Positions 6,931 through 32,000 of a DNA stretch of 32,000 nt are shown piece by piece (position 1 is the first letter of the stretch; every line of letters starts with the position of its first letter). The notes beneath the pieces were generated by a model, which did not search any database, was not told the origin of the DNA, and saw only the letters and a program-made list of their open reading frames with translations. A program made the translations under genes and the position numbers. The DNA is from Candidatus Electronema halotolerans (GTDB taxonomy: Bacteria > Desulfobacterota > Desulfobulbia > Desulfobulbales > Desulfobulbaceae). The stretch lies in NCBI GenBank assembly GCA_942493095.1, contig OW818675.1, positions 1,260,001 through 1,292,000 on the forward strand. Reading direction: 5' to 3'.

Positions 6931-8856
6931 ATGAAAAACAAAGCGCAGGCGGCAGCCCCGGAAGTTGTCAGCGAATTTCTCGGCAAAATCATGCCGTTCA
7001 AGGAACTGGCCCCAGAAACCATCCAGCAGGTGGCCAGCCAGGTCAAGGTGGATTTCTATCCCAAGGGCACCCGTCTGTTTCAAGCGGGCAAAAGCAGGAT
7101 TGATTACCTTTACCTGATTCAGCAGGGCGGGGTCAAATCCTTTATTGTTGATGACGAAGGCGTTGAAACTCTGAAGGATTTCAGAGGGGAAGGCGACTAC
7201 ATCGGCGCGCTGGGCATTATTCGCGGCACGCTGGCCAGTCTTGAGGTGGAGATGGTTGAGGACACCTTCTGCTTTCTCCTGCCCAAAGAGGTTTTTCTTG
7301 ACCTGATCAAAACCCAGCCCGGCTTTTCCCAGTATTATCTAAAGAGCTTTTCGGAAAAAGTGGTGACTGCGGCCTACAGCGAGCTGCGGCGGCACCGAAT
7401 GGGCCGGAGCAGTGACAGCAATCTCCATCTTTTTTCCATTCAGGTCGGCGACATCATCCGTCAGCCGCCGCGCAAGATTGGCGCAGATCGCAGCATCCGC
7501 GAGGCCGCAGGCAGAATGGCCGAATACCGGGTCGCCTCGCTGCTTATTCATGCGCCGGAAGACGAGGAGCAGATCATCGGCATTGTCACGGACCGCGACC
7601 TGCGCAACAAGGTGCTGGCTCCGGGCCGGGACACCAACGAAGCTGTCCAAACGGTGATGTCCGCGCCAGTTGCGACCATTCTTTCCCAGTCAACCTGCTT
7701 TGATGCCCTGATCAAGATGATGTCCGCCTCCATTCACCACTTGGCTGTGGAGCAGAAAGACCGGATCATCGGCGTGATCACCTCGCACGACATCACTCTG
7801 ATTCAGGGCCATGCGCCATACTCCATGTTCAAGGAAATCGGCAGGCAGCAAGGAATTGAAGGGCTGCATCCCCTCTCCCGTCGGCTGCCTGAGATGATCC
7901 GCAATCTGATCCGGGAAGGTGCCAGAGCCGGACATATTGCCCGGATGATCGCCATTCTCAACGATCAGATCATCGAGCGGCTGCTCACCCTGCTGGAGGA
8001 AGAGCTGGGGCCGCCGCCAGTGGATTACTGCTGGCTCTTAGTTGGTTCCGAGGGCAGGCGCGAGCAGACCTTCCGCACTGATCAGGATAATGCCATCATT
8101 TACGAAGACCCGGCGGACGAAGCGCAGACAGAGGAATGTGAAGACTACTTTTCCAAATTTGCCCGCCGGGCCATTGGTCACTTAGTCCAGTGCGGCTATC
8201 CGCTCTGTCCGGGCGGCATCATGGCGGTCAATCCGCGCTGGCGGCAGCCGCTCTCAGTCTGGAAAGGTTATTTTGAAAACTGGGCGGCCATGCCTGAGCC
8301 AAAGGAGCTGCTCAATGCGACGATATTCTATGATTTCCGGCCAGGGTTCGGCAAGGCAGCCTTGGCGGACGAGCTGCGCCAGCATCTGAACGCGGTCACG
8401 CAGCGGCAGGAGTTGTACCTCTTCCATCTTGCCAAGCAATGCCTCGGAGCCAGAGTGCCGCTCTCCTTTTTCAAGAATTTCATTGTCGAAAAGAACGGCG
8501 AGCATAAGAACAAGCTCGATATCAAGACCCAAGGGCTGACTCCCTTTGTCAACTTTGCCCGCATTCTCGCCCTCAAGCACGGCATCAGGGAGACCAACAC
8601 CTTGGCCCGGCTGCAAGTGCTGGCCAAGGAGAGCTGCCTCAGCGAGGAGCTGGTCGCCAAGGCAGTTGATGCTTATGAAATGCAGATGCAGGTGCGGCTC
8701 GTCCATCAGCTCAACCAGATGGACGCAGGCCAGCAGCCGGACAACCACATTGATCCCGCTGACCTGTCCGAGCTGGACCGGCGGCTGCTCCGCGATGCCT
8801 TTGAAGTGATTGAACGGCTGCACGGGCTGCTGCGGACCCTGTTCCCCACTGCCTGA
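6931..8856 (+). CDS. Cyclic-nucleotide-binding / tandem CBS / DUF294 putative nucleotidyltransferase signalling protein
   Basis: N-terminal cNMP-binding-like region (FYPKGTRLFQAGKSRIDYLYLIQQG...GEGDYIGALG). Two CBS-like stretches (ASLLIH..IIGIVTDRDL; HHLAVEQKDRIIGVITSHDI). Then SEGRREQTFRTDQDNAII, the DUF294 nucleotidyltransferase motif, plus a C-terminal substrate-binding helical part. GGAGGTG lies 6 nt upstream of the ATG. Confidence 0.85.
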   Translation: MKNKAQAAAPEVVSEFLGKIMPFKELAPETIQQVASQVKVDFYPKGTRLFQAGKSRIDYLYLIQQGGVKSFIVDDEGVETLKDFRGEGDYIGALGIIRGTLASLEVEMVEDTFCFLLPKEVFLDLIKTQPGFSQYYLKSFSEKVVTAAYSELRRHRMGRSSDSNLHLFSIQVGDIIRQPPRKIGADRSIREAAGRMAEYRVASLLIHAPEDEEQIIGIVTDRDLRNKVLAPGRDTNEAVQTVMSAPVATILSQSTCFDALIKMMSASIHHLAVEQKDRIIGVITSHDITLIQGHAPYSMFKEIGRQQGIEGLHPLSRRLPEMIRNLIREGARAGHIARMIAILNDQIIERLLTLLEEELGPPPVDYCWLLVGSEGRREQTFRTDQDNAIIYEDPADEAQTEECEDYFSKFARRAIGHLVQCGYPLCPGGIMAVNPRWRQPLSVWKGYFENWAAMPEPKELLNATIFYDFRPGFGKAALADELRQHLNAVTQRQELYLFHLAKQCLGARVPLSFFKNFIVEKNGEHKNKLDIKTQGLTPFVNFARILALKHGIRETNTLARLQVLAKESCLSEELVAKAVDAYEMQMQVRLVHQLNQMDAGQQPDNHIDPADLSELDRRLLRDAFEVIERLHGLLRTLFPTA

Positions 8857-8868
8857 GCATCAAAAAAT

Positions 8869-9987
8869 TCAGCCGAGCCGGTGCATGAGCCAGAGGGCGG
8901 TGTTCAGAGCTGCACCCTGCTGAATCTGCTCGTTAAGCGAACCAGGTGGGATGACGGCTTTTTCCTTGCTGACTGCTTCCATGAGCAGTTGCCAGCTTTT
9001 TCTGAGCAGGGGCGGCAAGGCAAAGGAGGGTGACTCCTCTGCTCTGCCTGCGCCGGGCAGAAGCAGCTCCATGTCCGGCAGGCCGTCTAAATGCTGGGCC
9101 AGCTCTGCGGCTGCATCGACAAAGTCCGACTCTTGCAGCAGCCCGGCAGCATAGAGCGCGTTCATCGGGTTGAGCGGCTGCGCGGCGAGCAGATTTTGCA
9201 GGCCGTTTTGGCTGAGAACCTTGCGTCCATGCAGCAGGCCAAGACGGAGCTGCTCAGTCTGCCGGGCGGCAGGGCTGGCAGGATCAAAACCCTTGCCCAT
9301 CTCGTTCATCAGCACCGCAGCTTCCGGCAGATTGGCCCGCAGCAGCTGCACACCGGGCAGCCAGCCATCTTCAGCCACGGCAAAAATCTGCGTCTGCCAG
9401 CCCGCCAGCGTGAGCACGAACATTTCGTAAATCTCACCCTGCTCCTCCTCGACCCGCAGACAATAGGTGCCGGGGTTCAGTTCCAGATGCAGAACGCATA
9501 ACCGGCTTTCCGCATTGCAGATGCCGTGCTCCGCCTTGGCCATCAGCCCGCCGTCTAAATTATGCAGTGACACGCCCAGCCAAGGTTGGGCAGCAGCTTC
9601 TGTCAGTCCCCTGAGAACAAGAAAGAACTGACTGCCGTTTCCCGCTCGAAAAGGCGCAGTCTTGGCACGGGATAATTCCTGCGCCGCCTCGCCGTGCTCC
9701 TGTCGCCATGTCATGGTCTGGCGCAGGGGAACTGGGCTGGCAAACTGCACTGCCGGGCCGTCAAAGACCTTGACCGCAGCATCTGCCGGCACTTCGATCA
9801 GGCTGTCGCTCTGCACCTGCCCGACCCGGAAGCGGGCCTTGTACAGCCCCGGCGCAACCATCGCCTCAACACTGCCGATTCCGGCGGCAATTTTCTCAAA
9901 GCGGCGGTCCACCAGAAAAACTTCAGTCAGGCTGTCCGCCGCATTGACTCGGAGAGTCACCATGCTCTCAGACTGTGATCCGCTCAT
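8869..9987 (-). CDS. Hypothetical protein, last gene of the transglutaminase/caspase operon; beta-sandwich (PEGA/CarboxypepD_reg-like) N-terminal region and helical C-terminal region
   Basis: The ORF is long and non-repetitive. AMVAPGLYKARFRV and LELNPGTYCLRV echo LELEPGLYKIAV in the C-terminus of the upstream caspase. The start is uncertain. M26 (9987) has GAGGTG 7 nt upstream and a 20-nt overlap with the caspase gene. M34 (9963) lies 4 nt after the caspase stop. Confidence 0.5.
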   Translation of the reverse strand: MSGSQSESMVTLRVNAADSLTEVFLVDRRFEKIAAGIGSVEAMVAPGLYKARFRVGQVQSDSLIEVPADAAVKVFDGPAVQFASPVPLRQTMTWRQEHGEAAQELSRAKTAPFRAGNGSQFFLVLRGLTEAAAQPWLGVSLHNLDGGLMAKAEHGICNAESRLCVLHLELNPGTYCLRVEEEQGEIYEMFVLTLAGWQTQIFAVAEDGWLPGVQLLRANLPEAAVLMNEMGKGFDPASPAARQTEQLRLGLLHGRKVLSQNGLQNLLAAQPLNPMNALYAAGLLQESDFVDAAAELAQHLDGLPDMELLLPGAGRAEESPSFALPPLLRKSWQLLMEAVSKEKAVIPPGSLNEQIQQGAALNTALWLMHRLG

Positions 9988-11005
9988 TGTTCGGCACCTC
10001 GAAAATTTTCTGGCGGCCTGTGCTGCTGACCGCGATTTTATACAGTCCCGGCTCCAGCTCAAGGCTCAGGCTGGCGGCTGAGGCTTTTTCCTGCCGAATT
10101 TCCTTGAAGTCGCCATTGTAGAGCACCAGCGTTTCCGTGCCGCTGTAGGGCTGGAGATCAACCTGCACTGGCAGAGCTGCGGCCTTTTTCCGCTGAAAAA
10201 AGGTGATGTCGCGGTACGAGTCAAGACGGATTTCCGGGGGTTCAATTGTCACATCTCCGGCAAATTTGGCCAGACTGTTATGAATCTGATTTTTCAGCAG
10301 CCCGCCAGTCACGCGGCCCTGCTCATCCGGGCCGGTCACACGCAGGGCATCCAGAACCGCCTTGGTGAAAATGCCTGACTTTCTGCCGTCAGCAAAGCTC
10401 CGCTCTCTGGCCACTTGCCCCCTGCCCACGGCAAAGGCGTAAAAACAGCGCACTTTGTCCGCTGCCGGGCTGCCCGCGCTGACCACATACTGCGGCTCCC
10501 GGATTGAATGCCACGAGTTGACCGTGCGGCAGCAGTCCATGATTAGGACCAGCTCATCAAAGACCGCATGACGGTGCAGCCATTCCACATAATCTGTGAT
10601 TGCAACATGCCAAGGAAACATCCTTTTTGCATTGGCGGCGTAGAGAGCGGTCTGACTGATGTCACCCGGATCGCCAAAGCCGTGCCCGGCGACAAAAATG
10701 TAAAGCCGTTCGCCCTGCCGTCCCTGCACCCCGTTGACAATGAACGGCTCAAACAGGGCCTCGACCTGATTCGGGATCGGTCGGGCTTCTTCAGCAGAAA
10801 AATCTGAGGAGAGGATGCGCCGGATATTGCTTTCCGGCAGATTGCCGCCTGTCGGGTCGCGCAGCCAGGCATAAAAATCTTCCGCATCATTGACCGGCCC
10901 TTTGAGCGGTGCCAAACCGCTCAGAGGATAGTCGTTGATGCCAATGACAATGGCACAATGCTGCTTATTGGACATCATCCGGCACCTGTGCTTGAATGGA
11001 AACAT
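9968..11005 (-). CDS. Caspase-like (peptidase C14, orthocaspase) protein with C-terminal beta-sandwich domain
   Basis: CAIVIGINDYP...LKGPVNDAEDF, the His context YIFVAGHGFG and the Cys context LVLIMDCCRT give a C14 His/Cys dyad arrangement. Alternative starts are M10/M11 (10978/10975). Confidence 0.8.
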   Translation of the reverse strand: MFPFKHRCRMMSNKQHCAIVIGINDYPLSGLAPLKGPVNDAEDFYAWLRDPTGGNLPESNIRRILSSDFSAEEARPIPNQVEALFEPFIVNGVQGRQGERLYIFVAGHGFGDPGDISQTALYAANAKRMFPWHVAITDYVEWLHRHAVFDELVLIMDCCRTVNSWHSIREPQYVVSAGSPAADKVRCFYAFAVGRGQVARERSFADGRKSGIFTKAVLDALRVTGPDEQGRVTGGLLKNQIHNSLAKFAGDVTIEPPEIRLDSYRDITFFQRKKAAALPVQVDLQPYSGTETLVLYNGDFKEIRQEKASAASLSLELEPGLYKIAVSSTGRQKIFEVPNNERITV

Positions 11006-11056
11006 GATCAGGCAGGCTCCGGCGCAGTGTTGTCCACGCCGGAGCTGTTCAGCCGC

Positions 11057-12727
11057 TCAGTTGTTGGCCAATTCGATCAGCCGCTCGACAATGGCGGCCA
11101 ACGGCGCGCTGGAGCCGTTGGAAGCGCTTGCCGCTGCGGACTGCCAGTTTGCAGGCACTGCCTGTCCCTCGGCCCAGGAGCCGCCCGGTTCGTAGGAAGT
11201 CCGCGCCCGGTCGCCCGGCCCCGGAGTCCAGAGGAAGTCAGGATGGCGGTTCAGGTACCATTCTCCGCCAATGATCTTGCCGGAGAAATCCAGCTCCAGA
11301 TCATAGTAATAGCGGACTGTGTCAATCGCATCCGCAGCCGAGCTGTCAACCGTGCTCTGGCTGGGCGCAGTCTCGACCGTGTAGGAGACATCCATAGCAA
11401 TGCCGACCATGCTGTCTGTCTGCGGGCTGCGGTACTTGGCAAAACGGTCATTGCTGAAGCTGCTCTTGGACACCGTGGCCTCTGCCAGACTGTTGCGGTA
11501 CACCATTTCCTTGGGATTGAAATAGTAGTAGCGGTAGCCGACCATGGGCTGGTTCCAGACTTCGTAGTCAAAAGTCGCGTCAATGACCATGCTCCGCCCG
11601 GATGCGCCGATCTGATTGACCACGGCCAGATGCCAGGTGCCGGGATTGGTGTCAAAGCAGCGGTCAGAGAGAATCCGCTTGTTCTGCGGATCAGTCGGCG
11701 GATTTGTTTCATTGCAGCGGCCGCCGATGAATTTGACTTGGGGGCTGACTTTAGCCCAGAGCAAGGAGGCCAGTCCTTTGATGTCAGACGGATAAAAGGT
11801 CAGCCATGTTTGCCCGTCCGCAGCCAGGACTTTGACGGATTTTTGGGGCCGGGCCAGCATGTAGGCGGCTGTCGCCCAGCCGTGGCAGATGCCCATCCAA
11901 GCGGCCACGGAGCCGGATTGTCTGTGATAATATTCACCCTCAGCCCACATTTTTTTGGTCAGGGTGTAGTTGCTGTCGCCGACTAAGATGTCATATTTTT
12001 CCGAAGGCGAAAGCAGATCAATGGCCGCTGCATCGCCGCTGGCCAAAATGCTGGCTGCCGGACGGCTTTCAACATAATCGTTGCATTCCTTCCAGTCTAA
12101 TGAATCAGGAAAGCTGGGATCATCATACCGCTTGCCAAGAATGCCCCGGCAGATGGCCCAGTAGTCACAGGACCACGGCGTGTTCCGCAGCCGCACATTC
12201 CGCAGGCCGCTGCTCTCCATGCTTTGCAGACCGGAGTGGCTGAAGGTGTCCACCAAATTGACGGCCTGATCATTGTAATTCCATGCAGCCCGGCCTGCGG
12301 CATCCTCTTCTGATTCAAGAACCAGCTTGCGCTGCTCGTCGCGGGCCTCCACATAGGCCTTTTCCTCAAGCGCGGCCTGATCAAAAGGTGGCTGCGAGAC
12401 CTCGTTCTCTCCGGCCTGCTCCTTCTGCTTGGGCGGCTGCCGGTCCATGAATGCGCCAATATTGTTGACAAAACTCTGCAAATCCGCATTGACCGCCTGT
12501 TCGTCATTCTCAGTCTCAGACCCGGACGCAGCCGCAGCCGGTTTCGGTTCTGCTTCGTGACTGTGCGGATGTTCGTGATCATGATCATGAACATGGTCAT
12601 GCCCGCAGCAGGAATTGCCATGATCATGACTGTGATCAGCAGGTTTGGAGCTGCTGTCACAGCTGCAGCCACAGCTTTTGAAGAAGTTTAACAGAGGGCA
12701 GTTGTGTTTTTTTGACGAGTTGGACAT
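11057..12727 (-). CDS. GP42-type 'transglutaminase elicitor' family protein with His/Cys-rich N-terminal tract
   Basis: VWNQPMVGYRYYY (11522-11560) matches the oomycete Pep-13 peptide VWNQPVRGFKVYE at 7 of 13 positions, including W2 and P5 (11 of 13 if conservative M/V, Y/F, R/K and Y/V replacements are also counted). The candidate nucleophile context is WMGICHGWATAAY (11876-11893). The N-terminus reads MSNSSKKHNCPLLNFFKSCGCSCDSSSKPADHSHDHGNSCCGHDHVHDHDHEHPHSH. I chose the start at 12727 because AGGAGG lies 5 nt upstream; the track start at 12769 lacks this. Confidence 0.7.
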   Translation of the reverse strand: MSNSSKKHNCPLLNFFKSCGCSCDSSSKPADHSHDHGNSCCGHDHVHDHDHEHPHSHEAEPKPAAAASGSETENDEQAVNADLQSFVNNIGAFMDRQPPKQKEQAGENEVSQPPFDQAALEEKAYVEARDEQRKLVLESEEDAAGRAAWNYNDQAVNLVDTFSHSGLQSMESSGLRNVRLRNTPWSCDYWAICRGILGKRYDDPSFPDSLDWKECNDYVESRPAASILASGDAAAIDLLSPSEKYDILVGDSNYTLTKKMWAEGEYYHRQSGSVAAWMGICHGWATAAYMLARPQKSVKVLAADGQTWLTFYPSDIKGLASLLWAKVSPQVKFIGGRCNETNPPTDPQNKRILSDRCFDTNPGTWHLAVVNQIGASGRSMVIDATFDYEVWNQPMVGYRYYYFNPKEMVYRNSLAEATVSKSSFSNDRFAKYRSPQTDSMVGIAMDVSYTVETAPSQSTVDSSAADAIDTVRYYYDLELDFSGKIIGGEWYLNRHPDFLWTPGPGDRARTSYEPGGSWAEGQAVPANWQSAAASASNGSSAPLAAIVERLIELANN

Positions 12728-13024
12728 GATCTCCTCCTTGAATTGGATGGTGCTGCCGAAAAACTGCATAATTTGAATCTACTCCAAAATCAGCAGATCG
12801 CCAAGGCATTGCCTGAAAAATATCATAGTTCATCCTTGAGGCGGCTGAAAGGGCCTGCGGCGGCAAAAACAGGAATTTTTTCCGCAATGCGAGGAGGCAA
12901 GAGCGCTGTTCAACCTTGCCCGGATTTCTTAAATCTGGTAAAAGAATCCGCAGGATGACACGGACAGCCTCTTTTGAGAGGTATTTTTATAAAATACAAG
13001 ATGTTGCGTGACAAGCGGCAATAA

Positions 13025-13373
13025 GTGAAATTGACAAATTTTCTTCAAGAAACACAGAATTCATTAAAAAACAACTACCTTGCCGATGACAGGCCGTGGG
13101 TTGTCGCTTTTTCCGGCGGCAAGGACTCGACATTGGTTTTGCAACTTGTTTATGAGATGCTGCTTGAACTTGACGACCAAGCTGTGAAACCAGTGCATAT
13201 CGTCTGTTCAGACACCCGCGTGGAGCCGCCCAATGTTGCTGAATATCTTCACAACAGTCTGCGGCAGCTGGAAGAACATGCAAAGCAATGCCGTTTTCCT
13301 CTCTTTGTTCATATTGTTCAGCCAACACCTGATGAAAGTTTCTGGTTTATTCTGGTTTAATGTGATAGGGAAA
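13025..13373 (+). pseudogene. dndC: 5' remnant of DNA phosphorothioation gene dndC (PAPS-reductase-fold sulfurtransferase)
   Basis: DDRPWVVAFSGGKDSTLVLQLVYEML...VHIVCSDTRVEPPNV...PDESFW has the P-loop SGGKDS and SDT.VE motifs of DndC N-termini. A 10-bp tandem duplication (tctggtttat/tctggtttaa, 13341-13360) shifts the frame. Without it the reading continues FWFNVIGK, then ends. About 110 of roughly 500 codons remain. Confidence 0.75.
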
Positions 13374-13903
13374 GTTGCATGATGGATGGAATTAACAGAT
13401 ATTTTAAATTGTTTTATAATCTCCGGGCGGATACGAGCAAGAGACGATGGTCTGAAGCAACTTGCTGCCGGGCACCGCACAAGCCTCTTTTCTTGCTTTC
13501 TATTTTTGATCTGATAGCATCAGGTGGAATAGTTGACAATTTTATAACGCCTTCGTTTGAACTCTCTGATTCTTTCGCAGCATACTGGTCAGCTGTCATG
13601 CCTCTTGGAAGTACCGGTTTAATGTGTTTGCCATTTTACCATCTTGCCACATCTGGATTTTGGCACCTTATACCGCAGCCAGATATGTTAGATGAACGTG
13701 GCCGTTCTATCAAATCAATGAAGCGTTTTACTTTTTTCTATCAGGGAGCCAAATTTAGTGATGATTTGTTTTTGTTGTTGAAAAACGAGCATTTCTTAGA
13801 AAAGCTGAGAACAATCTTGATTAAAACTTATTTTTCTCCTGATGCTCAGATAGCTTTAGCGAAGCAATCAATAATAAATTTAGAGTCATCGAAATATAGC
13901 TGT

Positions 13904-14091
13904 GTGGATTCAACTCGCAAGTGCAACTTTTTTTGGTTATCCAAAAAGCATAGGTTGGCTGGCACTTTGAATACTTCATGTAAATTTTCAATTATTTTCT
14001 CTTAGTTAGCGACAAAAGCAAAGTTGTGACACTCCCGTAACTGCCTTTTCTTGCAACCAAAAAAAGTTGCACTTGGAACTTGAATTCACCC
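13904..14091. mobile_element. MITE-like element (about 188 bp) with 35-bp terminal inverted repeats
   Basis: 13904-13938 (gtggattcaactcgcaagtgcaactttttttggtt) matches the reverse complement of 14055-14089 at 31/35 positions. It is flanked by a direct repeat (c)tgt at 13900-13903 and 14091-14094. Excision restores the host reading frame. Confidence 0.65.
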
Positions 14092-14443
14092 TGTAAAATA
14101 CTTGGGACAAATGAAATAATAAAAAATTATGAATTAACAATAGAAGATGAAGGTGTAAAAAATAAAATTCGGAGTCGAGGATTTCGCAAAGCCATTGTTA
14201 AATTGTATGAGCACCGTTGTGCTCTATGCGGCCTTCGCATCTTGACACCAGAAGGGCATACAGTTGTTGAAGCTGCTCATATTATACCTTGGAGTGCAAG
14301 TAAAAATGATCAACCACAGAACGGCATGGCCTTGTGTCGATTATGTCATTGGTTTTTTGACGAAGGTTTGATGGGAGTAGGAAAGTGTTATGAGATTCTG
14401 ATTTCACCTCTTGTCCGTCAGGGTGACAATTATCCCGGCCATA

Positions 14444-14569
14444 TAGCGGTTATGGGTTGAACGGCTATCAAATATCTTTGCTTTGTCAAAATTTTTGTAT
14501 GTATAAATTCAACAAGTTAAATTAAGCATCAATATATCAGGGTGATCACCATTCGGCGTGTAACCGCTA
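14444..14569. mobile_element. 126-bp MITE derived from an IS630-family element, TA target duplication
   Basis: The termini are tagcggtta.../...taaccgcta, flanked by TA (14442-43 and 14570-71). The left end matches the left end of the IS630 copy at 24285 at 23/30 positions. The right end matches at 21/29. Excision plus one TA restores the host frame. Confidence 0.7.
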
Positions 14570-14837
14570 TATAGAGACTATGACCGGTCGGGGCATTTTA
14601 AAACCTGAGAAAAAGATGTTCTGGCCTGATTTAGAATATTTAGAAATCCATAGAAAAGAAATTTTCAGAAAAAATTGATGTTATAAGACTCAATCATTAA
14701 ATTCATAGTTACTCACTTATCGAAAATCCTTGCAGAGGTATATTTTATAACTCGCCTATTACAAAAAAAATGACGGTCAACCTCCTGATATACGATATGA
14801 ACTGATGCTGACCACTTTTGCCGTCACCGTGTACAAG

Positions 14838-21107: not shown

Positions 21108-22616
21108 TTGACAAAATCAACAGGTAAAGATTATGCTGCCGTTATGAATTTCAGTGTTCCTAGTGAAAAAGAAGTCCGTGCTGCATACGCAGAAGGCGAA
21201 GAAGCGGTCGTCGCCCTGTTTAGCAGTATAACTGCGCAGGTTGAAAACCTCGCCGCTCAGTCAGCCAAGCAGTCCGAGATATTGAAGGATTTGCAGGCCC
21301 GGCTGTCGAAAAACAGTCGGAACAGCGGGAAACCGCCTTCGAGCGATGGATACGGTAAAGCGAAGCGAACGGAAAGTCTGAGAGAGTCCGGCAGGAAGCC
21401 GAACGGCGGCCAGCCAGGTCATCAAGGGCATACTCTTGAGCGGTCTGCGGCGCCGGATTCTACGGAGAGGTATAAATCCGAGGAATGCGCGGCTTGCAAA
21501 ATGTCGCTTGCGGATGTCGTCGCTGTCGGAGAGGAGGAACGGCAGGTTTATGATATTCCGGCGATTCGGATTGAAGTGACCTCGCATCGAGCGGAAATAA
21601 AAATCTGTCCCGGCTGCGGCACGGAAAACAGAGGCAAATTCCCGGAAAACGTCGGACAGGGCATCCGTTACGGCACGGGGGTGAAAACTTGGGCGGCATA
21701 TTTCGCGAACCAGCATCATATTCCGCTTGAACGGGCTGCGCAGATTATCGAAGACCTGACCGGGCATTCCGTCTCCGAGGGTTCGCTGCTGAAGGCATCG
21801 GAAGAGCTTTGCGGATGCGTGCGTCCTTCAACGGAAGCAGTCGAAAAACTGCTCATGAATACCGATGTGTTACATGCCGATGAAAGCGGAGTCCGCGTGA
21901 AAGGGAAGCTGCACTGGCTGCATGTCGCTTCGACGAACTGCCTCACCCATTATTCGGTGCATGAAAAACGGGGAAAAGAGGCGATGGACGCAGCGGGAAT
22001 CCTTGGAAAGTTCACAGGAACAGCGACGCATGATCATTGGAAATCGTACTTCAGCTATGAAAACTGCGGTCATGCGCTGTGCAATGCGCATCATCTCCGG
22101 GAACTCAAGTTCATAGAAAAACAGTATGGACAAGTTTGGGCCGGCGAGATGGCCGAGCTGTTGCTTGAAATAAAAGGCGCGGCTGAAAAGCTGAAGCCGG
22201 ATCGGGACGGCTTCGCGCCGGAGAAGATCGAAGAATTTGAGCGGCGGTATGATGAAATCGTCCGACGGGGTTTTGCCGACAATCCGTTCACTCCGCCTAA
22301 GGAGAAAAAACGAGGACGGGCGAAGAAGACTCCGCCGCTCAATTTGCTGACACGGATGCGTGATTACAGGGCGGAGACCCTCGCATTCATGTATGATTTC
22401 CGGGTTCCGTTCGACAACAACGCGGCGGAAAGAGATGTGCGGATGATCAAGGTCAAGCAGAAGGTTTCCGGCTGCTTCCGAACACTTGAGGGGGCAGAAC
22501 GATTCGCCTGTATCCGGGGATATATCTCCACGGTCCGTAAAAATTCAAGAAACATTTTTGAAGCGATCAAAGATGCTTTCCTTGGAAGTCCTTTTATCCC
22601 CGATTCCGCAGTATAA
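21108..22616 (+). CDS. IS66-family transposase
   Basis: A zinc-finger region (CAACK...CPGCG), then HADESGVRVKGKLHWLHV, ATHDHWKSY, CNAHHLRELKF and PFDNNAAERDVRMIKVKQKVSG are present. The start is either TTG 21108 (track) or the in-frame ATG at 21144. Confidence 0.85.
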   Translation: MTKSTGKDYAAVMNFSVPSEKEVRAAYAEGEEAVVALFSSITAQVENLAAQSAKQSEILKDLQARLSKNSRNSGKPPSSDGYGKAKRTESLRESGRKPNGGQPGHQGHTLERSAAPDSTERYKSEECAACKMSLADVVAVGEEERQVYDIPAIRIEVTSHRAEIKICPGCGTENRGKFPENVGQGIRYGTGVKTWAAYFANQHHIPLERAAQIIEDLTGHSVSEGSLLKASEELCGCVRPSTEAVEKLLMNTDVLHADESGVRVKGKLHWLHVASTNCLTHYSVHEKRGKEAMDAAGILGKFTGTATHDHWKSYFSYENCGHALCNAHHLRELKFIEKQYGQVWAGEMAELLLEIKGAAEKLKPDRDGFAPEKIEEFERRYDEIVRRGFADNPFTPPKEKKRGRAKKTPPLNLLTRMRDYRAETLAFMYDFRVPFDNNAAERDVRMIKVKQKVSGCFRTLEGAERFACIRGYISTVRKNSRNIFEAIKDAFLGSPFIPDSAV

Positions 22617-22625
22617 AAAACGAGT

Positions 22626-22662
22626 AAGGCCGTCTTCAGCACTTCTGAAAACGGCCTTTTTT
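22626..22662 (+). terminator. Rho-independent terminator inside the right end of the IS66 element
   Basis: aaggccgt-c-ttcag...ctgaa-a-acggcctt followed by TTTT, 10 nt after the transposase stop. Confidence 0.7.
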
Positions 22663-23099
22663 GTCAGGCTGAGTAGTTACAGAGCTTGTTTGATGCAGTG
22701 GCTGCTGGTTCTTCTGAGCTGGAGGCAGCAGCCAAGTTTGTTCGGGGCATTGCCCGCAATGCGTGCCGTTTCACCTGAACACTAATTTTTCCGATAATTT
22801 ACGAGCTGCTTTCCCTGCGAGGTGATTCGACTGGGCCGTTTTGTGCTGTTGGCAGGATTGCGGATGGACGAGTAAAAAATACCTGCGATGTAAAGCAGAT
22901 ACCTTTTTCACAACTGACGCTGCACTTGCTGTACAACGGTCTGTCAATAATCCTTTAAAAAAGGAGGAGGCATCCTTGCAATAGGCATCCTTTTTTTGCT
23001 ATAAAAAGATATGACCTTATTGGTTTTATGTCGCATAGCAGCATAAAAAAGAAATGCTAAGCCTTTTAACAAAAAAAGGCGCAGCTCAAGGAGAGATTG

Positions 23100-24287
23100 A
23101 TGAATAAAAAGACCTTAACAGCATTATGTTTGGCATCACTGATGCTTACAGCTAAAATGGCGCAAGCGCAAGAAGAGCAGGCTCCTTCATGTGAAACTGC
23201 TTATGCGTTTGGTTCTAAAACCTTCAGCGATATTGGCTTTACTCGTTGGGGGTGGGAGATAGTTCTACAGGGAAATGAGTTTGTAAGCACCAAAGTTTAT
23301 GCTGGTGCGGGACAGACTGACATCTTGAAAGGAACGTATGTAGGGGATCTCGAAGTTACTAGGGACAACGATCTTGTCACCTTTCAACTCCAGATGCTGG
23401 ATGGCTTCTCTGTAAGCGAAACACATATTTATGTGGGAACTTCTGATCTCTCGAAATCAGCACCTGGGCAATATGCCAATCTTACTGAAGGTAAGATCAA
23501 TTCTTTTGGCAATGGCCTGTTTAAAGTTGAACTTAATGATACTGTCACCGAGGGCGCGAAGTTATATGTTGTCGTTCATGCAGTAGTTTGTACTGGTGGA
23601 GGGGATCCAAATAATGGTGGAGACGATCCAAATGCCGAATGTGACCCAGCAGACAGCCCGTGGAAAGGAATTTGGGACAGTGCTGTAGAGTACAAGGCTG
23701 ACGATGTTGTTGAATATGAAGGCAGCAGCTATGTCAACGTTTGCTGTGATCCGCAAACAGCAGGCACAGCACCTCCTGATGATTTGTTTAATTCCGTCAC
23801 TAACGAAGGTTGTTGGAAACTCGTAGCTGAGAAAGGCGATACTGGAGCGACAGGTGAAACAGGTCCGACCGGCGAGCAAGGTGAAGTAGGTCCCGAAGGT
23901 CCGCAAGGGCCAATAGGCCCCGCTGGCCCGCAAGGTCTGAAGGGTGATAAAGGTGACAAGGGCGACACCGGCGATCAGGGAGAAGTAGGTCCCGAAGGCC
24001 CGACCGGTGCTCAAGGCCCGCAGGGCGAAGTAGGCCCGATTGGCCCGCAAGGTCTGAAGGGTGATAAAGGTGACAAGGGCGACACCGGCGATCAGGGAGA
24101 AGTAGGTCCCGAAGGCCCGACCGGTGCTCAAGGCCCGCAGGGTGAAGTAGGCCCGATTGGCCCGCAAGGTCCCGAAGGCCCGACCGGTGCTCAAGGCCCG
24201 CAGGGCGAAGTAGGCCCGATTGGCCCGCAAGGTCTGAAGGGTGATAAAGGTGACAAGGGCGACACCGGCGATCAGGGAGAAGTATAG
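23100..24287 (+). CDS. 5' fragment of the collagen-like gene (signal peptide, N-terminal domain, first 50 G-X-Y triplets), terminated by a TAG supplied by the IS end
   Basis: This is the track ORF 23097..24287. ATG 23100 is preferred over TTG 23097. The stop TAG at 24285-24287 is the first three bases of the IS630 terminus. Confidence 0.85.
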
Positions 24288-25329
24288 CGGTTTCGTATTG
24301 AACAGATATCAAACCCAGCAATGACGGAAAAACGATTTGATTGATTTTGACTTAACCGTTTTCAGAGATATATCATAAGCTTCCATCAGCTCACGCTCTG
24401 TTCTCGGCTTCAATTTTCTTATAGTGTTTTTCATTACTGACCAGCAGTATTCAATAGGGTTCAGTTCAGGACGATAAGGAGGGAGGAAAATGATCTTCGC
24501 TCCTGTACTTCTGATCAAAGCGAGAGCTTCTTTGTTTTTATGAGGACTGGCATTGTCAAGAACGACTGTCTTGCTGCTGTCAAGATATTTCAAAAGATAA
24601 TTTTTTATATAGAAATAAAAGACATCTCCTGTCATGGTGCCTTTAAATTTCATGCACTTCAATATTTTTCCAAACTTTACAGCTCCTATCATGCTTATTC
24701 TTTTCCCTTTACCTGAAGGTCTTTTTGAAAAAGCTCTTGTTCCTTTTCTTGATCTTGCAAATTTTCTCGACATGTTCAAACAGCATCCTGTCTCATCAAT
24801 AAAGATGAAATTCTTTTTGTCAGCCTCGAGCAGGCCTGCAAGGTAATTAACTGTCTTTGCTATATTTTCCTCTTTATACGCCGCCGGATCGCGGAAAGTT
24901 TTTTTTTCCGGCTGATTTTCAGTCTGGCGAGAGTTTCGCACAGCGTGGAAGGTGCTATTTTTAAATTGAATTTCTCGTATAAGCGATCACACATCTCTTC
25001 AAGCGTAAGATCGTTCTCGTCATCAATCATGCTGGTCAGAAAAGGCATATGAACTTCCTTGATTTTCGGAGGATTTCCGCCTTTATGAGGCTTCGGCTCA
25101 AGCGTCCCCTCAGTCTTCCATCTTTTTACAAGACTTTGAACAAATTTATAGGAAACGTCAAGCAAATCTGCAGTTCTTCTCAATGATTTCTGTTTTTCAT
25201 AAACAGACAAGACTTTCTTTCTGAAATCAATAGAATAAATCATGGCAGACCTCCGTGTGTAAAAAAATGGAAAAAACAGACAAGTCAAGTTTAATCTTTT
25301 TCTGATAACCATACAACCTGAAACCGCTA
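24285..25329 (-). mobile_element. IS630-family (Tc1/mariner-like) insertion sequence, 1045 bp, TA target-site duplication
   Basis: The termini are tagcggtttc.../...gaaaccgcta: 10 bp perfect, about 27 bp imperfect. TA occurs at 24283-84 and 25330-31. The uninterrupted array motif gagaagTAggtccc is reconstituted on excision. The element is visibly AT-rich relative to the host repeat. Confidence 0.85.
24309..25243 (-). CDS. IS630-family DDE transposase, encoded in two overlapping frames joined at an A9 run
   Basis: orfA (25243..24860) carries the HTH part, MIYSIDFRKKVLSVYEKQKSLRRTADLL, with GGAGG 6 nt upstream. orfB (24941..24309) carries FIFIDETG, VVLDNASPH and PPYRPELNPIEYCW, the DD(35)E triad. 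A -1 shift on AAAAAAAAA (24899-24907) would give ...KISRKKKTFRDPAAYKEE... and a 311-aa fusion. Confidence 0.8.
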
Positions 25330-25331
25330 TA

Positions 25332-28300
25332 GGTCCCGAAGGCCCGACCGGTGCTCAAGGCCCGCAAGGCGAAGTAGGCCCGATTGGCCCGCAAGGTCTG
25401 AAGGGTGACAAGGGCGACACTGGCGATCAGGGTCTGCCTGGCAACGACGGTGCTCAAGGCCCGCAGGGTGAAGTAGGCCCGATTGGCCCGCAAGGTCTGA
25501 AGGGTGACAAGGGCGACACTGGCGATCAGGGTCTGCCTGGCAACGACGGTGCTCAAGGCCCGCAGGGTGAAGTAGGCCCGATTGGCCCGCAAGGTCTGAA
25601 GGGTGACAAGGGCGACACTGGCGATCAGGGTCTGCCTGGCAACGACGGTGCTCAAGGCCCGCAGGGCGAAGTAGGCCCGATTGGCCCGCAAGGTCTGAAG
25701 GGTGATAAAGGTGACAAGGGCGACACCGGCGATCAGGGAGAAGTAGGTCCCGAAGGCCCGACCGGTGCTCAAGGCCCGCAAGGCGAAGTAGGCCCGATTG
25801 GCCCGCAAGGTCTGAAGGGTGATAAAGGTGACAAGGGCGACACTGGCGATCAGGGTCTGCCTGGCAACGACGGTGCTCAAGGCCCGCAGGGTGAAGTAGG
25901 CCCGATTGGCCCGCAAGGTCCCGAAGGCCCGACCGGTGCTCAAGGCCCGCAGGGCGAAGTAGGCCCGATTGGCCCGCAAGGTCTGAAGGGTGATAAAGGT
26001 GACAAGGGCGACACTGGCGATCAGGGTCTGCCTGGCAACGACGGTGCTCAAGGCCCGCAGGGTGAAGTAGGCCCGATTGGCCCGCAAGGTCTGAAGGGTG
26101 ATAAAGGTGACAAGGGCGACACCGGCGATCAGGGAGAAGTAGGTCCCGAAGGCCCGACCGGTGCTCAAGGCCCGCAGGGTGAAGTAGGCCCGATTGGCCC
26201 GCAAGGTCTGAAGGGTGATAAAGGTGACAAGGGCGACACTGGCGATCAGGGTCTGCCTGGCAACGACGGTGCTCAAGGCCTGCAGGGTGAAGTAGGCCCG
26301 ATTGGCCCGCAAGGTCTGAAGGGTGATAAAGGTGACAAGGGCGACACTGGCGATCAGGGTCTGCCTGGCAACGACGGTGCTCAAGGCCCGCAGGGTGAAG
26401 TAGGCCCGATTGGCCCGCAAGGTCCCGAAGGCCCGACCGGTGCTCAAGGCCCGCAGGGCGAAGTAGGCCCGATTGGCCCGCAAGGTCTGAAGGGTGATAA
26501 AGGTGACAAGGGCGACACTGGCGATCAGGGTCTGCCTGGCAACGACGGTGCTCAAGGCCCGCAGGGTGAAGTAGGCCCGATTGGCCCGCAAGGTCTGAAG
26601 GGTGATAAAGGTGACAAGGGCGACACCGGCGATCAGGGAGAAGTAGGTCCCGAAGGCCCGACCGGTGCTCAAGGCCCGCAGGGTGAAGTAGGCCCGATTG
26701 GCCCGCAAGGTCTGAAGGGTGATAAAGGTGACAAGGGCGACACTGGCGATCAGGGTCTGCCTGGCAACGACGGTGCTCAAGGCCTGCAGGGTGAAGTAGG
26801 CCCGATTGGCCCGCAAGGTCTGAAGGGTGATAAAGGTGACAAGGGCGACACTGGCGATCAGGGTCTGCCTGGCAACGACGGTGCTCAAGGCCCGCAGGGT
26901 GAAGTAGGCCCGATTGGCCCGCAAGGTCCCGAAGGCCCGACCGGTGCTCAAGGCCCGCAGGGTGAAGTAGGCCCGATTGGCCCGCAAGGTCTGAAGGGTG
27001 ATAAAGGTGACAAGGGCGACACCGGCGATCAGGGTCTGCCTGGCAACGACGGTGCTCAAGGCCCGCAGGGTGAAGTAGGCCCGATTGGCCCGCAAGGTCT
27101 GAAGGGTGATAAAGGTGACAAGGGCGACACCGGCGATCAGGGAGAAGTAGGTCCCGAAGGCCCGACCGGTGCTCAAGGCCCGCAGGGTGAAGTAGGCCCG
27201 ATTGGCCCGCAAGGTCCCGAAGGCCCGACCGGTGCTCAAGGCCCGCAGGGCGAAGTAGGCCCGATTGGCCCGCAAGGTCTGAAGGGTGACAAGGGCGACA
27301 CTGGCGATCAGGGTCTGCCTGGCAACGACGGTGCTCAAGGCCCGCAGGGTGAAGTAGGCCCGATTGGCCCGCAAGGTCCCGAAGGCCCGACCGGTGCTCA
27401 AGGCCCGCAGGGTGAAGTAGGCCCGATTGGCCCGCAAGGTCTGAAGGGTGATAAAGGTGACAAGGGCGACACCGGCGATCAGGGAGAAGTAGGTCCCGAA
27501 GGCCCGACCGGTGCTCAAGGCCCGCAGGGTGAAGTAGGCCCGATTGGCCCGCAAGGTCTGAAGGGTGATAAAGGTGACAAGGGCGACACTGGCGATCAGG
27601 GTCTGCCTGGCAACGACGGTGCTCAAGGCCTGCAGGGTGAAGTAGGCCCGATTGGCCCGCAAGGTCTGAAGGGTGATAAAGGTGACAAGGGCGACACTGG
27701 CGATCAGGGTCTGCCTGGCAACGACGGTGCTCAAGGCCCGCAGGGTGAAGTAGGCCCGATTGGCCCGCAAGGTCCCGAAGGCCCGACCGGTGCTCAAGGC
27801 CCGCAGGGCGAAGTAGGCCCGATTGGCCCGCAAGGTCTGAAGGGTGATAAAGGTGACAAGGGCGACACTGGCGATCAGGGTCTGCCTGGCAACGACGGTG
27901 CTCAAGGCCCGCAGGGTGAAGTAGGCCCGATTGGCCCGCAAGGTCTGAAGGGTGATAAAGGTGACAAGGGCGACACCGGCGATCAGGGAGAAGTAGGTCC
28001 CGAAGGCCCGACCGGTGCTCAAGGCCCGCAGGGTGAAGTAGGCCCGATTGGCCCGCAAGGTCTGAAGGGTGATAAAGGTGACAAGGGCGACACTGGCGAT
28101 CAGGGTCTGCCTGGCAACGACGGTGCTCAAGGCCTGCAGGGTGAAGTAGGCCCGATTGGCCCGCAAGGTCTGAAGGGTGATAAAGGTGACAAGGGCGACA
28201 CTGGCGATCAGGGTCTGCCTGGCAACGACGGTGCTCAAGGCCCGCAGGGTGAAGTAGGCCCGATTGGCCCGCAAGGTCTGAAGGGTGATAAAGGTGACAA

Positions 28301-29036
28301 GGGCGACACTGGCGATCAGGGTCTGCCTGGCAACGACGGTGCTCAAGGCCCGCAGGGTGAAGTAGGCCCGATTGGCCCGCAAGGTCTGAAGGGTGATAAA
28401 GGTGACAAGGGCGACACCGGCGATCAGGGAGAAGTAGGTCCCGAAGGCCCGACCGGTGCTCAAGGCCCGCAGGGTGAAGTAGGCCCGATTGGCCCGCAAG
28501 GTCTGAAGGGTGATAAAGGTGACAAGGGCGACACTGGCGATCAGGGTCTGCCTGGCAACGACGGTGCTCAAGGCCTGCAGGGTGAAGTAGGCCCGATTGG
28601 CCCGCAAGGTCCCGAAGGCCCGACCGGTGCTCAAGGCCCGCAGGGCGAAGTAGGCCCGATTGGCCCGCAAGGTCTGAAGGGTGACAAGGGCGACACTGGC
28701 GATCAGGGTCTGCCTGGCAACGACGGTGCTCAAGGCCCGCAGGGTGAAGTAGGCCCGATTGGCCCGCAAGGTCCCGAAGGCCCGACCGGTGCTCAAGGCC
28801 CGCAGGGTGAAGTAGGCCCGATTGGCCCGCAAGGTCTGAAGGGTGATAAAGGTGACAAGGGCGACACCGGCGATCAGGGAGAAGTAGGTCCCGAAGGCCC
28901 GACCGGTGCTCAAGGCCCGCAGGGTGAAGTAGGCCCGATTGGCCCGCAAGGTCTGAAGGGTGATAAAGGTGACAAGGGCGACACTGGCGATCAGGGTCTG
29001 CCTGGCAACGACCGGTGCTCAAGGCCCGCAGGGTGA
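25332..29036 (+). pseudogene. Middle fragment of the collagen-like gene (409 G-X-Y triplets, phase 0), ending at a frameshift-induced TGA
   Basis: ggt ccc gaa ggc ccg acc ggt gct caa... reads [42 protein letters not shown]... The sense frame contains no ATG, GTG or TTG codon. After the extra C at 29012/13 it reads NDRCSRPAG, then TGA at 29034-29036. Confidence 0.8.
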
Positions 29037-32000
29037 AGTAGGCCCGATTGGCCCGCAAGGTCTGAAGGGTGATAAAGGTGACAAGGGCGACACTGGCGAT
29101 CAGGGTCTGCCTGGCAACGACGGTGCTCAAGGCCCGCAGGGTGAAGTAGGCCCGATTGGCCCGCAAGGTCCCGAAGGCCCGACCGGTGCTCAAGGCCCGC
29201 AGGGCGAAGTAGGCCCGATTGGCCCGCAAGGTCTGAAGGGTGATAAAGGTGACAAGGGCGACACTGGCGATCAGGGTCTGCCTGGCAACGACGGTGCTCA
29301 AGGCCCGCAGGGCGAAGTAGGCCCGATTGGCCCGCAAGGTCTGAAGGGTGATAAAGGTGACAAGGGCGACACTGGCGATCAGGGAGAAGTAGGTCCCGAA
29401 GGCCCGACCGGTGCTCAAGGCCCGCAGGGCGAAGTAGGCCCGATTGGCCCGCAAGGTCTGAAGGGTGATAAAGGTGACAAGGGCGACACTGGCGATCAGG
29501 GTCTGCCTGGCAACGACGGTGCTCAAGGCCCGCAGGGTGAAGTAGGCCCGATTGGCCCGCAAGGTCTGAAGGGTGATAAAGGTGACAAGGGCGACACCGG
29601 CGATCAGGGAGAAGTAGGTCCCGAAGGCCCGACCGGTGCTCAAGGCCCGCAAGGCGAAGTAGGCCCGATTGGCCCGCAAGGTCTGAAGGGTGACAAGGGC
29701 GACACTGGCGATCAGGGTCTGCCTGGCAACGACGGTGCTCAAGGCCTGCAGGGTGAAGTAGGCCCGATTGGCCCGCAAGGTCTGAAGGGTGATAAAGGTG
29801 ACAAGGGCGACACCGGCGATCAGGGAGAAGTAGGTCCCGAAGGCCCGACCGGTGCTCAAGGCCCGCAAGGTGAAGTAGGCCCGATTGGCCCGCAAGGTCT
29901 GAAGGGTGATAAAGGTGATAAAGGTGACAAGGGCGACACTGGCGATCAGGGAGAAGTAGGTCCCGAAGGCCCGACCGGTGCTCAAGGCCCGCAGGGTGAA
30001 GTAGGCCCGATTGGCCCGCAAGGTCTGAAGGGTGATAAAGGTGACAAGGGCGACACCGGCGATCAGGGAGAAGTAGGTCCCGAAGGCCCGACCGGTGCTC
30101 AAGGCCCGCAGGGCGAAGTAGGCCCGATTGGCCCGCAAGGTCTGAAGGGTGATAAAGGTGACAAGGGCGACACTGGCGATCAGGGTCTGCCTGGCAACGA
30201 CGGTGCTCAAGGCCCGCAGGGTGAAGTAGGCCCGATTGGCCCGCAAGGTCTGAAGGGTGACAAGGGCGACACTGGCGATCAGGGTCTGCCTGGCAACGAC
30301 GGTGCTCAAGGCCCGCAGGGTGAAGTAGGCCCGATTGGCCCGCAAGGTCTGAAGGGTGACAAGGGCGACACTGGCGATCAGGGTCTGCCTGGCAACGACG
30401 GTGCTCAAGGCCCGCAGGGCGAAGTAGGCCCGATTGGCCCGCAAGGTCTGAAGGGTGATAAAGGTGACAAGGGCGACACCGGCGATCAGGGAGAAGTAGG
30501 TCCCGAAGGCCCGACCGGTGCTCAAGGCCCGCAAGGCGAAGTAGGCCCGATTGGCCCGCAAGGTCTGAAGGGTGACAAGGGCGACACTGGCGATCAGGGT
30601 CTGCCTGGCAACGACGGTGCTCAAGGCCCGCAGGGTGAAGTAGGCCCGATTGGCCCGCAAGGTCTGAAGGGTGACAAGGGCGACACTGGCGATCAGGGTC
30701 TGCCTGGCAACGACGGTGCTCAAGGCCCGCAGGGCGAAGTAGGCCCGATTGGCCCGCAAGGTCTGAAGGGTGATAAAGGTGACAAGGGCGACACCGGCGA
30801 TCAGGGAGAAGTAGGTCCCGAAGGCCCGACCGGTGCTCAAGGCCCGCAAGGCGAAGTAGGCCCGATTGGCCCGCAAGGCCCGCAGGGCGAAGTAGGCCCG
30901 ATTGGCCCCGAAGGCCCGCAAGGTCTGAAGGGTGATAAAGGTGACAAGGGCGACACCGGCGATCAGGGTCTGCCTGGCAACGACGGCGCTCAAGGCCCGC
31001 AGGGCGAAGTAGGCCCGATTGGCCCGCAAGGTCTGAAGGGTGATAAAGGTGACAAGGGCGACACTGGCGATCAGGGTCTGCCTGGCAACGACGGTGCTCA
31101 AGGCCCGCAGGGTGAAGTAGGCCCGATTGGCCCGCAAGGTCCCGAAGGCCCGACCGGTGCTCAAGGCCCGCAGGGTGAAGTAGGCCCGATTGGCCCGCAA
31201 GGTCTGAAGGGTGATAAAGGTGACAAGGGCGACACTGGCGATCAGGGTCTGCCTGGCAACGACGGTGCTCAAGGCCTGCAGGGTGAAGTAGGCCCGCAGG
31301 GTGAAGTAGGCCCGATTGGCCCGCAAGGTCCCGAAGGCCCGCAAGGTCTGAAAGGTGACAAGGGCGACACCGGCGATCAGGGAGAAGTAGGTCCCGAAGG
31401 CCCGACCGGTGCTCAAGGCCCGCAGGGTGAAGTAGGCCCCGAAGGCCCGCAAGGTCCCGCTGGTCCTGAAGGCCCGCAGGGGGCAACTGGTCCGCAGGGT
31501 GAACAAGGTCCGCAAGGTCCGAAGGGTGACACCGGCGAATGCGAGTTGCCGTCAGTTCAGTGTGACTTCGGCCAGATATTGACTGGTTGGATCAATGGTC
31601 AACCAATCTGTGAAGATATGCCGGTTAACCTGATCGGTGGCTGCGAAACTGCCTTTGCTTACGGTGACACGACACTGAATTCCTTCCTCAACACCAATCG
31701 TTGGGGATGGCAAAACACTGTAGCCCCAGGAACGACGCTGACTCAGCCGATTTATGCCGGAGCTGGACAGAATGATATAACCAAGGGAACCAAGGTTGGT
31801 GATCTGACTATAGATTACACCGATACCACCAAAGTGACCGTCACCTACACCATGACAGCAGATGATATTATCATGAAGGAAACCCATCTGTATGTGGGTG
31901 AGGAGAGTGTCACAACGGCTGCACCGGGTCAGTATGGCCTTCAGGATGAAGGTTTGCTCAACGCAACCACTGACAGCTACACAGTGAATGTCAGCGGCAA
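29014..32000 (+). pseudogene. 3' fragment of the collagen-like gene (280 further triplets in phase +1, Cys-rich linker, C-terminal globular domain), partial at window end
   Basis: Phase-1 reading from ggt at 29014 continues [19 protein letters not shown]... to ...[69 protein letters not shown]...[20 protein letters not shown]... No stop occurs before nt 32000. Confidence 0.8.

Follow-up and report, generated by a model that had tools for sequence, protein, structure and literature searches.

A GP42-type transglutaminase, a caspase-like protease and an unannotated partner protein in a conserved gene unit of cable bacteria: a putative proteolysis-gated effector module

In a stretch of 32,000 nucleotides from Candidatus Electronema halotolerans (contig OW818675.1, positions 1,260,001 to 1,292,000 of the forward strand), hereafter called the window, three adjacent genes encode a transglutaminase-like enzyme of the GP42 type (gene A), a caspase-like cysteine protease (gene B) and a protein without annotation (gene C; Table 1). 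On balance, we favour the view that A, B and C constitute an effector module of the biological-conflict or programmed-death type, in which proteolysis by B would release a latent enzyme A. An earlier note on the same DNA had presented the three genes as a candidate undescribed module. The unit itself was borne out, but it is not a stand-alone invention: the module is one effector variant of a widespread core that consists of the caspase and C.

Conservation and layout of the gene unit

Genomes were scanned with an alignment of the caspase; 242 relatives were confirmed among the pattern matches and the best 80 were taken as loci. The order A-B-C was kept in 18 of the 19 cable-bacterial loci, and the best matches of all three proteins came from Candidatus Electronema and Electrothrix, i.e. 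from cable bacteria. The flanking genes differed among the window, E. aureum and E. scaldis, the loci of which the surroundings were examined, and in Electrothrix a second transglutaminase gene follows C, giving the order A-B-C-A2. Pairwise identities of A, B and C co-varied (r 0.85-0.88), as shared descent alone would also bring about. The coupling of B to C was without exception: a homologue of C lay directly after B in 75 of 75 informative (uncut) genome loci, and in 10 of these the two were fused into one protein. These loci belong to Acidobacteriota, Chloroflexota, Myxococcota, Planctomycetota, Actinomycetota and Alpha-, Beta- and Gammaproteobacteria, as well as to Chlorobium, Gemmatimonadota, Abditibacteria and Cyanobacteria.

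Clustering divided the genes immediately 5′ of B into three classes. Alpha/beta-hydrolases of ~500 aa with HGG and GHSTG motifs, the latter with the nucleophile, occupied this position in 28 loci (Abhydrolase_6 in 18 of 25), astacin-like metzincins of ~230 aa with invariant HEFGHxxGxxHEH and SIMMY motifs in 21, and transglutaminases in 19, all of them in cable bacteria. The conserved core is B plus C, and its enzyme partner is exchangeable. In the astacin-like partners (e.g. L008 993-1676 and L058 4467-5150), Cys8 is invariant and position 23 always basic, both being located before the HExxHxxGxxHE domain, and the N-terminus could be a cysteine-switch propeptide that is removed by the caspase. 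At two loci (L070 and L074) the astacin operon additionally contains a trypsin plus nuclease or trypsin plus PLD in fusion with C, a hint of a protease cascade.

The family of A was approached separately by a metagenome scan, the query of which was an alignment of transglutaminases headed by that of Thiocystis. Neighbours were analysed at 73 loci with an intact transglutaminase open reading frame (ORF), 29 of which were too short for the neighbours to be judged. The transglutaminase adjoined a protease in 39 of the 44 informative loci, and 37 of these 39 proteases belong to clan CD. Specifically, the neighbour was B with C (C14) at 11 loci, a Peptidase_C11 (clostripain) directly after the transglutaminase at 19, a giant protein combining DUF7379, a lipase-like hydrolase, CHAT and TPR-S at seven, and a pair of Peptidase_S8 and MBL-fold protein ahead of the transglutaminase at two (L109 and L139; L091 is the same contig as L109). 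Only five loci that extend for 2.5 kb or more to either side had none of these protease neighbours. Examples of protease-linked transglutaminases are found at L143 8471-10072, L113 792-6941 and L091 780-5768, and similar ones at L094-L173. The hydrolase, the astacin and the C11 neighbour gave no match in PADLOC. The order B-C-transglutaminase occurs in Crocosphaera and on the non-cable contigs L094, L097, L098 and L104. The adjacency in 39 of 44 loci is the strongest evidence that transglutaminase and protease work together, and the linkage of the three families, which the earlier note had deduced from a single locus, is a conserved one. A chance adjacency of three unrelated genes was likewise considered and is refuted by the linkage in several phyla and gene orders, by the B-C fusions and by the overlapping reading frames.

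Within the window, the ORFs of A, B and C were confirmed to be co-oriented, all on the minus strand, with the short junctions that had first drawn attention to them. The ATG of gene A at 12727 is preceded by AAGGAGG and homologues start at the same position, while an in-frame ATG upstream of it at 12769 is without a Shine-Dalgarno sequence. From the stop codon of A, 51 nt separate the first ATG of B and ~80 nt an alternative start at 10978 or 10975, which lies behind AGGTG and where the majority of homologues begin; the latter is likely the true start of gene B. For the junction of B and C, the earlier note had offered a 4-nt gap or a 20-nt overlap. The stop codon of B (TGA) occupies 9970-9968, so that the ATG of C at 9987 creates the overlap and an alternative ATG at 9963 would create the gap. 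Gene C starts at 9987, because GAGGTG precedes this position, the N-terminus MSxSxS is conserved and the same overlap exists in relatives, the identical 20-nt overlap being called in both E. aureum and E. scaldis. The overlap thus stands and the gap falls. A consensus scan for promoters and terminators inside the unit gave nothing convincing beyond shuffle expectation, which is weak evidence either way. As a part of the whole explanation that we favour, and with the same slight leaning, we regard A, B and C as one operon.

Domains and catalytic residues of the three proteins

Protein A matched the Pfam model PF16683 (TGase_elicitor) over residues 180-515 with an E-value of 5e-35 and 121.4 bits (gathering cut-off 25). 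By sequence it matched the GP42 structure 3TW5 in the PDB (E 4e-28), and by fold, as judged with Foldseek, chain 3TW5_A (E 1.5e-14; template modelling score on the target 0.63); apart from 3TW5_A, Foldseek gave no match to the model below E 0.1. The AlphaFold 2 (AF2) model of A had a predicted local distance difference test (pLDDT) score of 80.6 and showed four regions, namely a leader, an N-terminal segment, a linker and the enzyme body. The folded N-terminal segment includes the invariant residues K100 and R133 and, judged from the model, is a candidate pro-segment. In the enzyme body, Cys281 was found in 78 of 78 and His282 in 75 of 78 relatives. This 'CH' motif, which has been described for GP42 (PMC10318531), aligned with the residues SH of chain 3TW5_A, where a Cys-to-Ser mutant appears to have been crystallised. 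The catalytic Cys-His pair of A is intact; Ca2+-dependent cross-linking of proteins, an activity of the GP42-type family, is a putative activity of A.

The leader of A opens with a motif KHNC(P/F)(L/I)LN that is common to the upstream-type transglutaminases of cable bacteria, followed by a variable low-complexity tract. In A, the 68 residues of the leader include 12 His and 6 Cys. This His/Cys-rich tract was seen only in Electronema, is replaced by acidic or Ser-rich tracts in Electrothrix and is absent from the downstream-type transglutaminase paralogues. The idea that the protease removes the His/Cys-rich leader was thus not sustained, the tract being confined to Electronema and not a conserved feature. 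For the same reason, a general propeptide or nickel-handling element was rejected as a role of the His-rich leader.

Conceivably, the module could serve the cell envelope. The protease would then mature a secreted transglutaminase that cross-links the surface or matrix, such as the collagen-like giant protein, or the His/Cys leader would handle a metal, e.g. nickel, for the conductive fibres. Collagen-repeat genes indeed lie 10-18 kb away, GP42 of oomycetes is a cell-wall enzyme, and the leader has the high His and Cys content given above. However, neither A nor B nor C showed a segment resembling a signal peptide or a transmembrane helix in a hydropathy scan (maximum over 15 residues 1.36), and the first 60 residues of A held no hydrophobic segment (maximum 0.58) in what is a crude hydropathy test and not SignalP. 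All three proteins thus look cytoplasmic. Furthermore, the module has no collagen genes in its vicinity in E. aureum, E. scaldis and Crocosphaera, and the His-rich tract does not extend beyond Electronema. We consider an envelope role highly improbable, and the collagen-like giant, which had been put forward as a conceivable cross-linking substrate, can be set aside on the same grounds of export and linkage.

Protein B matched PF00656 (Peptidase_C14) with an E-value of 1.1e-8 and 35.4 bits (cut-off 21.4), and 181 homologues were found. Its profile matched the metacaspases 6W8S, 9N3D and 4AF8, so that metacaspases are its best relatives in the PDB. PADLOC assigned only its generic 'caspase' model, and the score against NCBIfam NF047832 (caspase_w_EACC1) was 48.6 bits, far under the cut-off of 140. 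In an alignment of 27 homologues, His108 and Cys158/159 were invariant, showing that the His/Cys dyad noted earlier (AGHG, DCCR) is present and intact. Equally invariant in this alignment were Asp157, which adjoins the Cys pair (DCC), and Asp40, which lies upstream of the dyad (GPVND). These two residues may be equivalent to S1 residues of TbMCA2, and could then form the acidic S1 pocket by which metacaspases are specific for Arg and Lys. By analogy with metacaspases, which cut after these residues, B would be expected to cut after Arg or Lys.

Protein C had no match in Pfam, NCBIfam or PADLOC. Its AF2 model (pLDDT 89.9) consists of two beta-sandwiches (residues 10-76 and 119-229) and a helical domain (residues 239-356). 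A whole-protein analogue was not found in the PDB, Foldseek returning only generic sandwiches of the Ig, transthyretin or CarboxypepD_reg-like kind, and the alignment of C contained no invariant Cys, His or Ser that would hint at catalysis. The family is nevertheless large, since a full HMMER search collected 2,334 clusters at E≤1e-10, and it is without a Pfam model. Residues 275-345 of B aligned with residues 5-75 of C at an hhalign probability of 93.8% (E 1.7e-7). The PGxY beta-sandwich signature that the earlier note had seen in both proteins thus reflects true homology.

Long homologues of C carry extra domains, namely NACHT/STAND, TPR-S, Trypsin_2 with PLDc_2, Trypsin_2 with Endonuclease_NS, or an amylase domain. 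Conflict systems typically show such shuffling of what appear to be sensor and toxin domains, and C is a putative adaptor or sensor of the caspase. The suspicion that the module belongs to a conflict-type context, initially based on the presence of a caspase-like protease, was strengthened by the NACHT, TPR-S, trypsin plus PLD and trypsin plus nuclease fusions. In a viral collection (IMG/VR), the sole match was a distant pair of caspase and C with ~31% identity on a 33-kb contig (L174 6001-8179). The system of caspase and C is not phage-borne, because viral contigs yielded only this one distant B-C pair.

Proposed mechanism and its alternatives

Protease activation of A finds strong, though indirect, backing in the protease adjacency of its clade together with a conserved Arg-Ala pair in the disordered linker. 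Arg146 was found in 50 of 51 homologues of A and was followed by Ala in 48 of 51. Apart from the linker that holds it, the AlphaFold model shows no disordered loop between N-terminal segment and enzyme body. Among 78 relatives, position 146 was R or K in 40 of 40 transglutaminases linked to the clan-CD proteases C14, C11 or CHAT, and Pro in the S8-linked lineage. This change from R/K to Pro with the protease partner is suggestive only, but it speaks for R146 as the cleavage site. Likewise, the hydrolases located 5′ of B have two conserved (R/K)-(G/S) sites ~30 residues apart.

From these findings we infer the following mechanism. A would reside in the cytoplasm, kept latent by its N-terminal segment (residues 69-138), while the non-enzymatic C would bind B, probably through the homologous beta-sandwiches. 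A trigger, for example phage infection or cell damage, would render B active, upon which B would cut A at Arg146-Ala147, within the exposed linker, and perhaps at Arg507-Ala508 as well. Once freed, this enzyme of the papain fold could cross-link, deamidate or cleave cell proteins, and the affected cell of the filament would be arrested or killed.

Several known systems resemble this arrangement. In several conflict systems, caspase domains are always accompanied by a neighbouring alpha/beta-hydrolase (Kaur et al. 2020, PMC7159879), and the LcCaspase of Lysobacter capsici cuts the LcHydrolase zymogen at two Arg-Gly sites, which makes it toxic (Evans et al. 2025, bioRxiv 10.1101/2025.11.14.688446). 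As in these hydrolase-caspase modules, the enzyme gene in the window is the immediate 5′ neighbour of a caspase-like protease with a sensor part coupled to it: the effector gene is co-oriented beside the protease gene at 51-80 nt and is conserved across genomes, and C, which may do the sensing, follows B or is fused to it. The 28 B-C loci with a hydrolase in the 5′ slot, with their two basic-Gly/Ser sites, bring the likeness closer. We liken these hydrolases to LcHydrolase by description, and they are larger (~500 aa versus ~300 aa). A latent effector that is licensed by proteolysis would be shared as well. In contrast, the effector in the window is a GP42-type transglutaminase and not an alpha/beta-hydrolase, and the sensor or adaptor is a separate protein of the unannotated C family. 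Neither transglutaminase nor astacin is among the ten protease-associated effector families that have been listed (bioRxiv 10.1101/2025.11.14.688446).

The EACC1- and EACC2-caspase systems (PMC7159879, PMC8195603) are alike in having a constant caspase component, a constant partner and variable C-terminal domains, and in being enriched in multicellular bacteria; the weak caspase_w_EACC1 match of B fits this likeness. Unlike EACC1 systems, however, the module has no small EACC1 protein with one transmembrane segment: its 5′ gene encodes a transglutaminase of 556 aa without such a segment, and its partner is a soluble protein of two sandwiches and a helical domain. Bacterial gasdermins with their caspase-like proteases and Craspase/Csx30 share the principle of a dedicated protease that cleaves a neighbouring latent effector in defence (summarised in bioRxiv 10.1101/2025.11.14.688446). 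There the effectors are a pore former or a regulator of a sigma factor, whereas A is an enzyme with a papain/transglutaminase fold, and the module has no CRISPR link.

With GP42 of Phytophthora sojae (3TW5) and its marine Vibrio relatives, A has in common the fold and the unusual Cys-His 'CH' motif. However, A is bacterial, is without a signal peptide, has ~180 extra N-terminal residues and is genomically tied to proteases. The transglutaminase-elicitor literature that we found concerns oomycetes only and does not describe these traits, and no literature joining cable bacteria with transglutaminase was found. Outside this family, factor XIII is activated by thrombin and the Streptomyces pro-MTG is also activated proteolytically, while TG2 cross-links proteins in apoptotic animal cells. 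These enzymes share with the proposed module the zymogen principle or the combination of a death protease with cross-linking. This is analogy and not homology, their folds and lineages being unrelated or distant.

Gene linkage as such gives no direction, and the relation between A and B might be reversed or parallel: A could act on the protease, as its regulator or through a modification such as cross-linking, deamidation or trimming, or both enzymes could share a target, with A acting as a papain-fold peptidase or deamidase and not as a cross-linker. The papain/transglutaminase fold does support peptidase and deamidase chemistry (PMC10318531), and both the Thiocystis transglutaminase, which stands beside another candidate effector, and the second paralogue of Electrothrix would fit such an arrangement. 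Against this, A occupies the 5′ slot of the hydrolase, which is a cleaved zymogen in the related system, and the conserved basic residue in its disordered linker is what a substrate would present. We therefore hold a reversed or parallel action to be quite unlikely.

A number of points weigh against the proteolysis-gated effector module that we prefer. PADLOC has no model for A or C and only one distant copy was seen on a viral contig, so that no direct sign of defence emerged. The Arg146-Ala site is a candidate deduced from conservation and predicted disorder, and the Pro at position 146 comes from one single lineage. Candidatus Electronema sp. JM (L021 7959-10140) has B and C with no transglutaminase within 8 kb upstream or 3.7 kb downstream. 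In Thiocystis violacea (L090 419-6094), a convergent transglutaminase lies beside a complete set of hydrolase, caspase and C, and because of this coexistence the transglutaminase may be an addition to the effector and not simply its substitute. Our neighbour surveys relied on a simple caller of longest ORFs and on our own hidden Markov models, and per scan they covered the best 80 loci. Finally, the module is kept across two whole genera. As anti-phage systems tend to be patchy, such retention is unusual for them, and a housekeeping or developmental role of the module is therefore possible.

In its most explicit form, the latter would be a cell-death module of the multicellular filament in development or damage response and not an anti-phage system, producing metabolically dead ghost cells or controlled breakage points, in which the transglutaminase fixes the contents while the envelope and conductive fibres stay intact. 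The module occurs at different loci in both genera and in essentially every cable-bacterial genome that was sampled, a pattern that indeed resembles a lineage trait more than a defence island with its patchy spread. Multicellular prokaryotes are enriched in related conflict systems (PMC7159879), and cable bacteria do have ghost cells as well as caspase-domain genes that have been flagged for study and whose function is unknown (PMC12163305). On the other hand, nothing ties ghost cells to this locus, many of the bacteria in which the B-C core is widespread are not known as filamentous, and the fusions of C to NACHT, TPR-S, nuclease and PLD domains are typical of invader sensing. We consider this developmental role unlikely.

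The licensing of death effectors by proteases is emerging as a principal theme in bacterial immunity, and the published catalogue comprises nucleases, a hydrolase and pore formers. To this, the locus adds a protein cross-linker as a candidate output, from a bacterial family that is almost always tied to cysteine proteases of the Arg/Lys type, and an astacin-like metalloprotease as a further candidate that hints at protease cascades. It also adds an unannotated putative adaptor or sensor family (~2,300 clusters) that always goes with one clade of caspases. For cable bacteria, it offers the first concrete and testable candidate for the caspase-domain genes that have been discussed with regard to ghost cells and the breakage of filaments. 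The three proteins are soluble and of a size that suits direct biochemistry. As a doubtful extension, a caspase-activated cytoplasmic transglutaminase could be a non-lytic death effector of cable bacteria and of some cyanobacteria and sulfur bacteria, which, on infection or damage, fixes the cell contents and leaves metabolically dead but structurally intact ghost cells. If so, the dead cell would confine an invader without loss of function in the shared envelope and the conductive fibres, in a bacterial counterpart of apoptotic animal cells, where transglutaminase cross-links proteins. Protease-licensed effectors would then include, as new classes, GP42-type transglutaminases and astacin-like proteases, with an unnamed adaptor family.

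Surroundings of the module in the window

Downstream, a gene for a nucleotidyltransferase converges on gene C, with 12 nt between the gene ends, and its linkage to the module is not conserved in other genomes. No link of the transposase and collagen region (21108-31515) to the module was found in other genomes either. Directly upstream of gene A lies a patch of low GC content (positions 13000-14700; 0.40 versus ~0.58), which, from its composition and genes, looks like a decayed mobile or defence element.

Table 1. Features of the module and of its surroundings in the window
Feature	Position	Strand	Remarks
Gene A	11057-12727	(-)	556 aa, GP42-type (TGase_elicitor) transglutaminase-like; putative latent effector
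A residues 1-68, disordered leader	12524-12727	(-)	pLDDT <50
A residues 69-138, conserved folded N-terminal segment	12314-12523	(-)	pLDDT 70-96; outside Pfam core; candidate pro-segment
A residues 139-148, disordered linker with Arg146-Ala147	12284-12313	(-)	pLDDT <50; Arg146 codon 12292-12290
A Cys281-His282, 'CH' motif WMGICHGW	11882-11887	(-)	catalytic; conserved in relatives
Gene B	9968-11005	(-)	345 aa, caspase-like C14 (metacaspase/orthocaspase-type) cysteine protease
B catalytic dyad His108 (AGHG, 10684-10682) and Cys158/Cys159 (MDCCR, 10534-10529)	10529-10684	(-)	invariant columns
B residues 275-345, C-terminal beta-sandwich with PGLYK motif	9971-10183	(-)	hhalign to first C sandwich
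Gene C	8869-9987	(-)	372 aa, unannotated partner; putative adaptor or sensor of caspase
cNMP-binding, CBS and DUF294 nucleotidyltransferase gene	6931-8856		converges on gene C
PP-loop (DndC/PAPS-reductase-like) fragment	13025-13360		within low-GC patch
Unannotated ORF	13379-14005		within low-GC patch
HNH_2 endonuclease	14080-14460		within low-GC patch
IS66 transposase	21108-22616		flanks collagen-repeat gene
Collagen-repeat gene	23097-24287		
DDE_3 transposase	24309-24941		flanks collagen-repeat gene
Giant overlapping repeat ORFs	25227-31515		strong GC and AT skew

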